NCBI RefSeq assembly: GCF_000007145.1
Contig: NC_003902.1
Location: forward strand, 4,763,426 to 4,795,425
DNA length: 32,000 nt
Direction of reading: 5' to 3'
DNA from: Xanthomonas campestris pv. campestris str. ATCC 33913
GTDB taxonomy: Bacteria; Pseudomonadota; Gammaproteobacteria; Xanthomonadales; Xanthomonadaceae
Numbering within the stretch: position 1 is the stretch's first letter; each line of letters begins with the position of its first letter. A model generated the notes under the pieces. It did not search any database. It worked only from the letters and a program-made list of their open reading frames with translations, and was not told where the DNA came from. Shown one piece after another: positions 24,922 to 25,547 of the stretch. Position numbers and translations under genes: made by a program.

Positions 24922-25547
24922 GGCGGGCACCTCCACAAACGTGCTGCGTACATGGCGCAGGGGTTGCGCGAACAGCACGCCTGCGACTTATCGCGCCAAA
25001 AAATCCAGCACTGCCCCAATCACCGTAGCAACCGCTGATGCAGCGAGCGTCTTTGTGATCAGCGTTGTAATTGGCATTGCTATTGTTGGTGTTGCTGTTC
25101 TTGTTGCTGCTGTGGCTGTGGCTGTGGCTGTTGCTGTTGCTGTTGCTGTTGCTTTCGATCTTGCCGTTGCCGTACCGGGGCCCCTTCCGCAGCGGCGGAG
25201 ACGGTGGGCAAACCCCACCGGGGCGGCGCGCACGGATGCGCGACGTTTTCGGCAGGGACAGGATGTCCCTTCCGAAAATTCCCGCCGGCTCCGCGCACCC
25301 GAAGGGCGCGTAGGCGGGGTGTGCTTTCTTTTGGTTACGTTTCTTTGCACAAGCAAAGAAAAGTGACTCGCGCCCCAGAGGGCGTGAAAGCCCCTGCCGT
25401 TGCACCGTCCGAAAAGACCGAACACCGCGTTCGTTATTGCTAGCGAAGCACGCAACCTCGCACACGCCATGGTTTGAGCTGTCACGAAGCACCGGCAAAC
25501 CCAACTGAAATGCCAGCGCAGCGGAGGACACCGCAGACACGCAACGA
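24922..25547. other. 626-bp non-coding, hairpin-dense spacer separating czcB from czcA (candidate inserted structured element)
   Basis: No credible ORF is present. GC falls to ~47-55% in 25320-25550. Stable hairpins lie at 25203-25219, 25227-25242, 25246-25278 (TTTTCGG-c-AGGGACA-GGA-TGTCCCT-t-CCGAAAA), 25292-25310 and 25340-25361 (TTTCTTTGC-ACAA-GCAAAGAAA). A hexamer microsatellite lies at 25076-25171. Confidence 0.75.
25076..25171. repeat. hexanucleotide microsatellite: (GTGGCT)3(GTTGCT)4 core with degenerate flanks
   Basis: The perfect core is at 25112-25153. Flanking hexamers (attgct attgtt ggtgtt gctgtt cttgtt gctgct ... ttcgat cttgcc gttgcc) keep the same 6-nt phase. Confidence 0.9.

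Follow-up and report, generated by a model that had tools for sequence, protein, structure and literature searches.

A Widespread Multi-Hairpin Repeat with a Putative Triple-Helix Module between czcB and czcA of Xanthomonas campestris

The czcB-czcA Spacer

The stretch of DNA analyzed here, referred to as the window, comprises 32,000 nucleotides of Xanthomonas campestris pv. campestris str. ATCC 33913 (contig NC_003902.1, positions 4,763,426 to 4,795,425), and the subject of this study is the spacer that separates czcB from czcA, the adaptor and pump genes of an efflux operon read on the − strand. Sequence comparison identifies here a single copy of a non-coding, widely distributed repeat, made up of the segment from ~25172 to 25395 and the microsatellite at 25084-25157. 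The interpretation put forward, which we regard as evenly poised between true and false, is that this widespread multi-hairpin repeat was inserted in czc, acts as an RNA with a triple helix and is a passenger rather than a regulator of the operon.

The 626-bp gap noticed in a previous sequence-only reading of this DNA is real, having the start of czcA (24921) and the stop codon of czcB (25548) on its flanks. As that reading had stated, czcA carries its own GGAGG upstream of the ATG, and the gap holds no credible open reading frame (ORF): the Pfam search of the spacer ORFs gave no match, and their relatives are only "hypothetical proteins" of Xanthomonas. The suspicion that such bogus proteins recur in annotations is borne out for Xanthomonas, and the DNA motif itself is also found in Stenotrophomonas and Pseudomonas. 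The two hairpins singled out earlier, at 25246-25278 (15-nt arms, 93% complementary) and 25334-25367, are both genuine, and so is the hexamer microsatellite (25084-25153, period 6, 11.2 copies, 80% matches). Two further statements stood in part. The GC content does drop, not to 47% but to a minimum of 0.545-0.57 in 200-nt windows; and the absence of T-runs after the hairpins holds inside the element, although the terminator scan of the operon strand gave one weak terminator-like site at 25433-25419 (−), in which 3 of the 6 pairs are G-C.

Both strands of the spacer fold far better than shuffled sequence, the + strand (−127.5 kcal/mol, z −5.6) being the better of the two compared to the − strand (−117.9 kcal/mol, z −4.7). 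The sequence TTTCTTTGCNNNNGCAAAGAAA is present once in the window and in none of 100 shuffles.

The AT-Rich Module as a Candidate Triple Helix

The 45-nt module conserved in the family has the general form Py1 (CUUUCUUUU), GGUUAC, Py2 (UUUUCUUUG), a loop and Pu (CAAAGAAAA), and in the window its parts follow in the order S1a, Py1, GUUAC, Py2, S1b, Pu and GUGAC (Table 1). Py2 pairs with Pu, and S1a pairs with S1b inside the hairpin loop; of 145 instances, 119 form all four S1 pairs, and 37 different combinations of the two arms occur. Py1 is the mirror of Py2, and hence a base-for-base parallel match to Pu, with U opposite A and C opposite G. It shows no complementarity to Pu and does not repeat Py2 directly.

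This relation was followed through copies from a genome scan, made with an exact pattern and one genome per species (at least 120 loci), and from a metagenome scan, in which the common haplotype was excluded and Py1 was left free except for its last three bases (at least 120 loci). The family counts of orientation, loops, covariation and neighbors given here and below cover loci among the matches listed. At register 0, Py1 and Pu are compatible at 98.5% of positions; for the G positions, the value is 96.6%, compared to 1-4% when the register is shifted. A perfect fit at the free positions was seen in 134 of 145 metagenome instances, whereas an average of 51.6 (standard deviation 4.8, maximum 70) was obtained when Py1 was shuffled among the instances, and the non-canonical genome copies also follow the rule. 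Seven haplotypes obey it: CAAAAGAAA, CAAGAGAAA, CAAGAAAAA, CAAAGAAAA, CAAAGAGAA, CGAGAGAAA and CGAAAGAAA. A direct repeat, tried as an alternative for Py1, fits just 4 of the 145.

This covariation indicates a putative intrastrand pyrimidine-motif triple-helix pseudoknot with U·A-U and C+·G-C triples, because a mirror repeat is selected neither by duplex pairing nor by a dimeric DNA-binding protein; as all three strands are on one chain, the predicted fold must be intrastrand. Py1 would then occupy the major groove of the Py2:Pu helix, parallel to Pu, with ~8 triples of the U·A-U type and one of the C+·G-C type, and the 4-bp stem would connect the loop of the hairpin with the bases on the 5' side of Py1, resulting in an H-type pseudoknot with loop 1 in the deep groove. 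A triple-helix pseudoknot of this module was not found described in the literature searched, from which the motif string is also absent. The sequence-only reading had taken the AT-rich hairpin for a simple stem-loop, and both the third strand and the link to the TwoAYGGAY RNA motif, considered below, had escaped it.

The Folding Strand and the Multi-Hairpin Body

On the + strand, the family starts with the microsatellite of the boundary, which is followed by GC hairpins and then by twin hairpins in TwoAYGGAY architecture, whose (A)NGGAU(G) loops are of the type that CsrA/RsmA bind; a GC hairpin, the 45-nt AT-rich module and a terminal GC hairpin complete the order. The window copy and two other family loci, L012 and L036, have the same module order: twin hairpins, closing stem, GC hairpin, AT-rich core and terminal hairpin. 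The closing stem is predicted by the minimum-free-energy fold, in which GGCGG pairs with CCGCC and encloses the twin hairpins. In the alignment A4, consisting of 22 Xanthomonadales-type copies, 93.3% of the cells are paired and compensatory changes occur in 29 of 43 pairs. The loops of hairpin 2 in the family read AUGGAUG, AGGGAUG, CAGGAUG and AAGGAUG.

Regarding the strand on which these structures operate, GGA-loop hairpins are found in 145 of 235 elements on the + type strand versus 59 of 235 on the other, and the elements with at least two of them number 78 on the folding strand versus 15. Moreover, the middle pair of GUUAC/GUGAC, in the 14-bp AT hairpin, is an unpaired C·A in 83 of 126 copies when read on the czc strand, but U·G on the + strand (UG 17, UA 4). 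This supports the + strand, antisense to czc, as the probable functional folding strand, since a C·A on the A-rich strand is a G·U on the U-rich strand, and since GGA-loop hairpins favor that strand and the + strand folds better. Two roles considered for the A-rich strand, that of an Hfq (ARN)n platform and that of an element in mRNA sense, were set aside in view of the G·U pairs and GGA loops on the other strand.

Table 1. Coordinates of the genes, the repeat and its parts in the window.
Feature	Position	Strand	Basis
czcA (RND pump)	21709-24921	−	Pfam ACR_tran, E = 0
czcB (adaptor), 493-aa form as annotated in X. campestris pv. campestris 8004	25548-27029	−	Pfam HlyD_D23; exact start uncertain
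Whole czcB-czcA spacer, 626 bp	24922-25547		ORF and Pfam checks
czcA-side filler: decayed microsatellite and conserved ~35 nt before czcA, including GGAGG	24922-25083		Alignment A3 (X. nasturtii, X. axonopodis)
(TGTTGC)n hexamer microsatellite, 5' boundary in RNA orientation	25084-25157	+	TRF period 6, 11.2 copies
Repeat element core; folding strand +, antisense to czc	25172-25395	+	Similarity to Xanthomonas copies L010, L109 and L125 begins and stops here
Two GC-rich 5' hairpins	25184-25200, 25201-25220	+	Minimum-free-energy fold
Twin hairpin 1, loop ACGGAU (fits AYGGAY)	25224-25245	+	A4: 7/8 stem pairs compensatory, 98.3% of cells paired
Twin hairpin 2, 14-bp stem, loop AGGAU (the 14-bp hairpin of the sequence-only reading)	25246-25278	+	11/14 pairs compensatory
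GC hairpin separating the twin hairpins from the triplex module	25293-25310	+	L012, L036: hairpin at the equivalent position
S1a UGUG, pairs with S1b CACA (25348-25351)	25320-25323	+	All 4 pairs covary
Py1 CUUUCUUUUG, proposed Hoogsteen third strand	25324-25333	+	Parallel-register match to Pu
GUUAC, pairs with GUGAC (25363-25367), lengthens the hairpin to 14 bp	25334-25338	+	Outer pair covaries: GC 74, CG 48
Py2 GUUUCUUUG, Watson-Crick pyrimidine strand, first base U to G in the window copy	25339-25347	+	Canonical U in the X. axonopodis and X. euvesicatoria orthologues
Pu CAAAGAAAA, triplex purine strand	25354-25362	+	Register tests
H0, terminal GC hairpin past the module	25369-25386	+	Nearly all copies have one, sequence variable
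czcB-side lineage-specific filler, holds the weak terminator-like site	25396-25547		Unalignable with X. axonopodis more than ~20 nt past the stop codon

With respect to the flanking genes, the czcB product is 100% identical to AAY51165.1 from strain 8004. The mechanical ORF of czcB covers 25548-27476 (−, 642 aa) and overruns the outer-membrane-factor gene at 27026-28291; as the CzcB versions in databases have 421-493 aa, the true start must be well downstream of the start of the 642-aa ORF.

Boundary Microsatellites

Independent Xanthomonas copies align from ~25395 to ~25172, and then each one enters its own hexamer array, with a different unit. Tandem repeats of period 5-9 amount to 8.0 per 10 kb at the 5' boundary and 3.3 at the other boundary, compared to a background of 0.42, giving a ~19-fold enrichment at the element boundary. 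These flanking microsatellites may be by-products of replication trouble at the cluster formed by the triplex and the hairpins. A microsatellite tail at the 3' end, as in SINE-like elements, was set aside, as the array is 5' in RNA orientation and its unit differs among copies.

The window contains other repeats as well. Perfect G-rich heptamer microsatellites, (TGGGGAT)6, (GGGATTG)4.3 and (GGGAAGC)3.3, occur at 5706-5750 and 31588-31637, and may be of the G-quadruplex-forming type reported to be enriched in Xanthomonas (PMC4692102). At 19118-20216, a 223-bp unit is repeated five times in tandem with 94% matches, and a REP-like palindrome, CCCTTCTCCCATCGGGAGAAGG...GCAGGGGCGGATGAGGGTA, is located inside the unit. 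At 6817-7137, a 153-bp unit is repeated 2.1 times, with a REP sequence of the GTAGGAGCGCGCTTGCGCGCG type on its flanks.

Distribution and Arrival at the czc Site

As proposed in the sequence-only reading, blastn was applied with the core of the element, here to plasmid and chromid records, and it matched other genera (Aeromonas, Ralstonia, Burkholderia, Pasteurella and Pseudoalteromonas) over the ~50-nt AT-rich stretch only. The genome matches listed belong to Xanthomonadales, Pseudomonas, Stutzerimonas, Comamonadaceae, Burkholderiaceae, Neisseriales, Aeromonas and other lineages, the family spanning beta- and gamma-proteobacteria. Many of them sit at contig ends or on ~300-bp contigs, as expected because the element is a repeat. 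By rough gene calls among the matches listed, the element lies in sense in 28 tandem gene pairs and antisense in 22, and it is placed between convergent genes in 21 cases and between divergent ones in 10. Gene clustering of the neighbors within ±4 kb of ~125 loci revealed no transposase, reverse transcriptase, integrase or RAYT. RND pumps are near the element in 9 loci, several of which appear to be orthologous Polaromonas loci, with no clear enrichment.

The comparison of orthologous czc operons, another check suggested by the first reading, did provide filled and empty sites. Long spacers are found in another X. campestris (617 bp), X. axonopodis (534 bp) and X. euvesicatoria (~580 bp), and short ones in X. 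nasturtii (77 bp), X. dyei (~145 bp) and X. translucens (149 bp); in Pseudoxanthomonas, the two genes overlap by 11 nt. The element is present at the junction only in X. axonopodis, X. euvesicatoria and X. campestris, always antisense to czc, and none was found at that place in X. nasturtii, X. dyei, X. translucens and Pseudoxanthomonas. The flanks that separate it from the czc genes vary among species. This distribution shows that a copy entered the czcB/czcA junction within a Xanthomonas subclade. With such diverged flanks, a target-site duplication could not be read from the filled and empty sites, nor were terminal inverted repeats visible in them. Among the options raised earlier, that of a mobile structured element agrees with the multi-copy family, the presence/absence polymorphism at the czc site and the lack of an orientation preference.

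In X. translucens, the czc spacer (L253, ~2770-2900) holds a classical REP palindrome, CTGTAGGAGCGGCTTCAGCCGCGAC...GTCGCGGCTGAAGCCGCTCCTACAG, in place of the triplex element, and the czcB/czcA junction seems to have a tendency to collect repeats.

Different arrangements of the element were also observed. Inverted pairs of copies, head-to-head or tail-to-tail and some with a short tandem repeat between them, occur at L010 (2316-2511), L083, L004 (2500-2910), L034, L054 and L116. A low-GC variant of ~560 nt begins or ends with the triplex motif and has TTTTTTGGTTACTTTTTGTTG, an inverted and degenerate copy of it, at the opposite end; this variant is found at L030 (447-1005 and 7450-8000, repeated within one Pseudomonadales metagenome-assembled genome) and also at L005, a predicted viral contig. 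The motif was considered as a phage attachment site on the basis of L005 and L030, which was discarded because the shared sequence is this ~560-nt variant of the element itself. In a Comamonadaceae subfamily (L014, L037, L046, L064, L068, L078, L098, L099 and others), the triplex module is kept and the body is different, consisting of long covarying helices around the conserved AACTCGCT..TCGCTCAGACA and CCCTGATCC, after which octamer or hexamer arrays come, such as (AAACAGCC)20.

RNA or DNA Level of Action

The strand-specific GGA loops, the three Rfam RNA families on that strand and a promoter-like site in Pasteurella favor an action of the element as RNA. Regarding the Rfam families, L012 (61.5 bits) and L036 pass the TwoAYGGAY gathering threshold of 43 bits, directly 5' of the module and on the same strand, and AaHKsRNA22, a small RNA (sRNA) family detected by RNA-seq, and Bp1_684 map beside the module, also on the same strand. 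The Pasteurella copy has a sigma-70-like promoter on the folding strand. In such an RNA, the twin GGA loops would bind RsmA/CsrA, and the 3' triple helix and terminal hairpin would block 3'-to-5' exonucleases, as ENE/MALAT1 triple helices do. At the czc site, the element would be a passenger instead of a regulator, because the conserved structures are represented on the czc mRNA by their complement alone, and czcA would be expressed through read-through of the insert; the passenger status would apply equally to an element acting as DNA.

A more specific proposal, to which we give clearly less credence than to its negation, is that of a dispersed mobile small-RNA family, capped at the 3' end by a MALAT1/ENE-like triplex pseudoknot, titrating CsrA/RsmA with its twin GGA hairpins and making microsatellites on landing. 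If this were true, the family would supply Rsm sponge RNAs in Xanthomonas, which has no RsmY/RsmZ homologues, and in many beta-proteobacteria.

Two observations concern known sRNAs in these loci. Bp1_684, a Burkholderia sRNA predicted by SIPHT, begins within the purine strand of the module (L003, 2408-2520; L034), and its family model appears to have been built on part of the repeat. The Pseudomonas sRNA P11 (116 bits; L061, 2035-2173) is ~5 kb away from a copy of the element and is probably unrelated.

Several results weigh against an RNA with a triple helix. In the window, no sigma-70 promoter for a + strand RNA was found in 24700-25800, no GacA box near the spacer and no intrinsic terminator on the + strand, no GC hairpin at the 3' end being followed by a run of U. 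The published sRNA screen of X. campestris pv. campestris 8004 lists no transcript at the spacer position, as placed via gene numbers and assuming that TT653 is sX13. In Rfam, 901 nt of the window gave no TwoAYGGAY match at E ≤ 10, and for 111 nt of the window the best match in the Csr/Rsm clan was RsmW (16.5 bits, E 0.41), with no threshold reached; the Rfam check recommended at the outset yielded only noise for the spacer (U4atac, isrG and the same RsmW match). A GGA-loop hairpin is present in only 62% of the family members, and the copy number is low in some genomes, with the element in 3 places of a 4.9-Mb record of Aeromonas caviae. As for the triple helix, the window copy has a U-to-G change at the first triple; the mirror symmetry alone would also be compatible with a triplex of the purine motif on the complementary strand of the DNA; loop 3 has just 1-2 nt, so that S1 and the full 14-bp helix may be incompatible in the proposed fold; and the purine strand has an internal position, with GUGAC and the H0 hairpin after it, and does not form a 3' tail as in ENE/MALAT1.

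The sX13 sRNA of Xanthomonadaceae is itself present in the window at 2294-2408 (−), with a full-length Rfam match of 142 bits.

The same observations can be read at the DNA level, an explanation that we consider possible but rather doubtful. An intrastrand triplex and hairpins would form in single-stranded or supercoiled DNA during replication or transfer, as in the BoxC/TMECO triplex repeats of E. coli, promoting polymerase stalling, rearrangement and slippage, and the repeat would spread or persist as selfish DNA. The hairpins resembling TwoAYGGAY would then exist in DNA and play no part as RNA. This view fits the unbiased orientation of the element with respect to transcription, as well as the absence of a promoter or terminator for the + strand in the window and the head-to-head and tail-to-tail copy pairs, which are also known for TMECO (PMC4666352). 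The strong microsatellite enrichment at the boundaries and the presence/absence polymorphism fit the reported link between intrastrand triplexes and genomic instability, and the many matches at contig ends and the ~560-nt variant, with the motif at one end and its degenerate inverted copy at the other, point in the same direction. Against it, the ANGGAUG loops are conserved on one strand only, which a DNA hairpin does not need, and three Rfam RNA families lie on that strand; furthermore, neither a transposase, RAYT or integrase was found among the neighbors, nor a target-site duplication in the filled versus empty sites. In addition, C+·G-C triples have little stability in a DNA triplex of the pyrimidine motif when the pH is neutral, RNA versions being more stable, which also counts against a purely DNA-level element.

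Going back to the element as an RNA that is a passenger in czc, the opposite view is that of a czc-specific RNA module, with processing, stability or attenuation on the czcCBA mRNA setting the CzcB:CzcA ratio or controlling czcA, as two of the options of the sequence-only reading had it. It could draw on the − strand, which also folds better than its shuffles (z −4.7), on the weak terminator-like hairpin at 25433-25419 of the operon strand, on the GGAGG retained by czcA and on the maintenance of the insert in three Xanthomonas species. However, we hold it to be very improbable, as only the strand antisense to czc gives the correct reading of the conserved structures, and the element lies beside unrelated genes in hundreds of loci, in either orientation. 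Related czc operons have spacers of 0-149 bp with unrelated content (−11, 77, ~145 and 149 bp in the orthologues), and the 9 loci with RND pumps, several apparently orthologous in Polaromonas, amount to no clear enrichment. Finally, an ordinary REP/BIME- or MITE-type repeat, consisting of palindromes only and moved by RAYT or a transposase, would share the intergenic, multi-copy nature, the excess of convergent over divergent gene pairs (21 vs. 10) and the inverted copy pairs, but is the least credible of all, because the czc copy has no GTAG-type REP head and, between its diverged flanks, no visible terminal inverted repeats or target-site duplication, no transposase was found within ±4 kb of ~125 loci, the 45-nt core is conserved across two bacterial classes, unlike the species-specific REPs, palindromes do not explain the mirror-repeat covariation, and a classical REP palindrome fills the X. 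translucens spacer instead.

Significance

If true, a module of ~9 triples under three-way covariation across two bacterial classes would be a new structural class, whether in RNA or in single-stranded DNA. The orphan TwoAYGGAY motif would gain a conserved partner module and a far wider host range, and candidate RsmA-binding RNAs would be offered in Xanthomonas. Moreover, the element may lie behind the recurring bogus "hypothetical proteins", certain breaks in assemblies and one class of microsatellites, from hexamers to octamers, in intergenic DNA. For annotation, the message is that long intra-operon gaps can be passenger insertions of this element.

Comparison with Known Systems

TwoAYGGAY (Rfam RF01731, clan CL00106 Csr/Rsm) was described by Weinberg et al. 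in 2010 as an orphan candidate RNA (PMC2864571) and proposed by Gardner and Eldai in 2015 as a CsrA binder (PMC4333381). Similar to the element, it has adjacent twin hairpins with AYGGAY-type loops inside a closing stem, on the same strand and in the same position relative to the AT-rich module; tandem G·A pairs in hairpin 2, which were noted for TwoAYGGAY, also occur in some members of the family studied here. The Psychromonas seeds in the alignment of Weinberg et al. run on into ...CUUUUGGUUACUUUUCUUUUG...AAAGAAAAGUAAC. Sharing the 45-nt module and the module order with L012, L036 and these seeds, the window copy can be taken, on this evidence, as homologous to accepted TwoAYGGAY members. 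It differs from them in its second loop, AGGAU, which lacks the Y and is one base short of AYGGAY. The Rfam model recognizes 1 of 18 further family loci; it ends before the triplex module, and both the model and the published description are without the AT-rich module and the microsatellites.

Regarding the Csr/Rsm sponges, GGA hairpins within the RsmU transcript of X. campestris bind and sequester RsmA (PMC7694677). The element resembles these RNAs (CsrB, RsmY/Z/X, RsmU) in having GGA in hairpin loops, in an ANGGAUG context, two of them exposed in the window copy. Unlike them, it has only two sites, no GacA box and no intrinsic terminator, and its copies are dispersed; binding of CsrA/RsmA would be a predicted property.

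Intrastrand triplex DNA repeats of bacteria have been surveyed and connected with genome instability, the example examined being BoxC/TMECO of E. coli (Holder et al. 2015, PMC4666352), a text in which neither Xanthomonas nor the module sequence is mentioned. BoxC/TMECO (Hoyne et al. 2000; PMC4666352) also has three consecutive blocks on one strand that are able to form a triplex, and it is likewise intergenic, multi-copy, at times in inverted pairs and linked to local genome instability. However, it is an enterobacterial, G/C-rich purine motif, CCCTCNCCC-N3-6-GGGNGAGGG-N3-GGGNGAGGG, a pattern that the element does not fit, having instead an A/T-rich pyrimidine motif (Py-Py-Pu) within a larger structure with GGA hairpins.

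The predicted fold of the module also recalls the SAM-II, SAM-V and preQ1-II riboswitches and telomerase RNA, where S1 is followed by a U-rich loop 1 in the deep groove of S2, and then by S2 itself; as in H-type pseudoknots with major-groove triples, the register of loop 1 matches that of the purine strand. In the module, S2 is far longer (14 bp), with a longer run of triples, and, unlike in riboswitches, there is neither a ligand pocket nor a 5'-UTR (untranslated region) context, the element lying in either orientation beside any gene. According to a 2026 review, RNA triple helices in prokaryotes are only those of riboswitches and group II introns, which are short.

Finally, ENE, MALAT1, PAN and the ENEs of plant and fungal transposons have in common with the module a U·A-U run broken by one C+·G-C, made of two U-rich strands and one A-rich strand. 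The MALAT1 triple helix is of a length similar to the ~9 triples of the module. The module departs from ENE/MALAT1 in its three contiguous strands, short loops, pseudoknot-closing stem and bacterial host, and in a purine strand that is neither a 3' tail nor poly(A); its stabilizing role would be a predicted one. As for the transposon ENEs, the likeness extends to the carrier, as both are borne by a repeated, probably mobile element.

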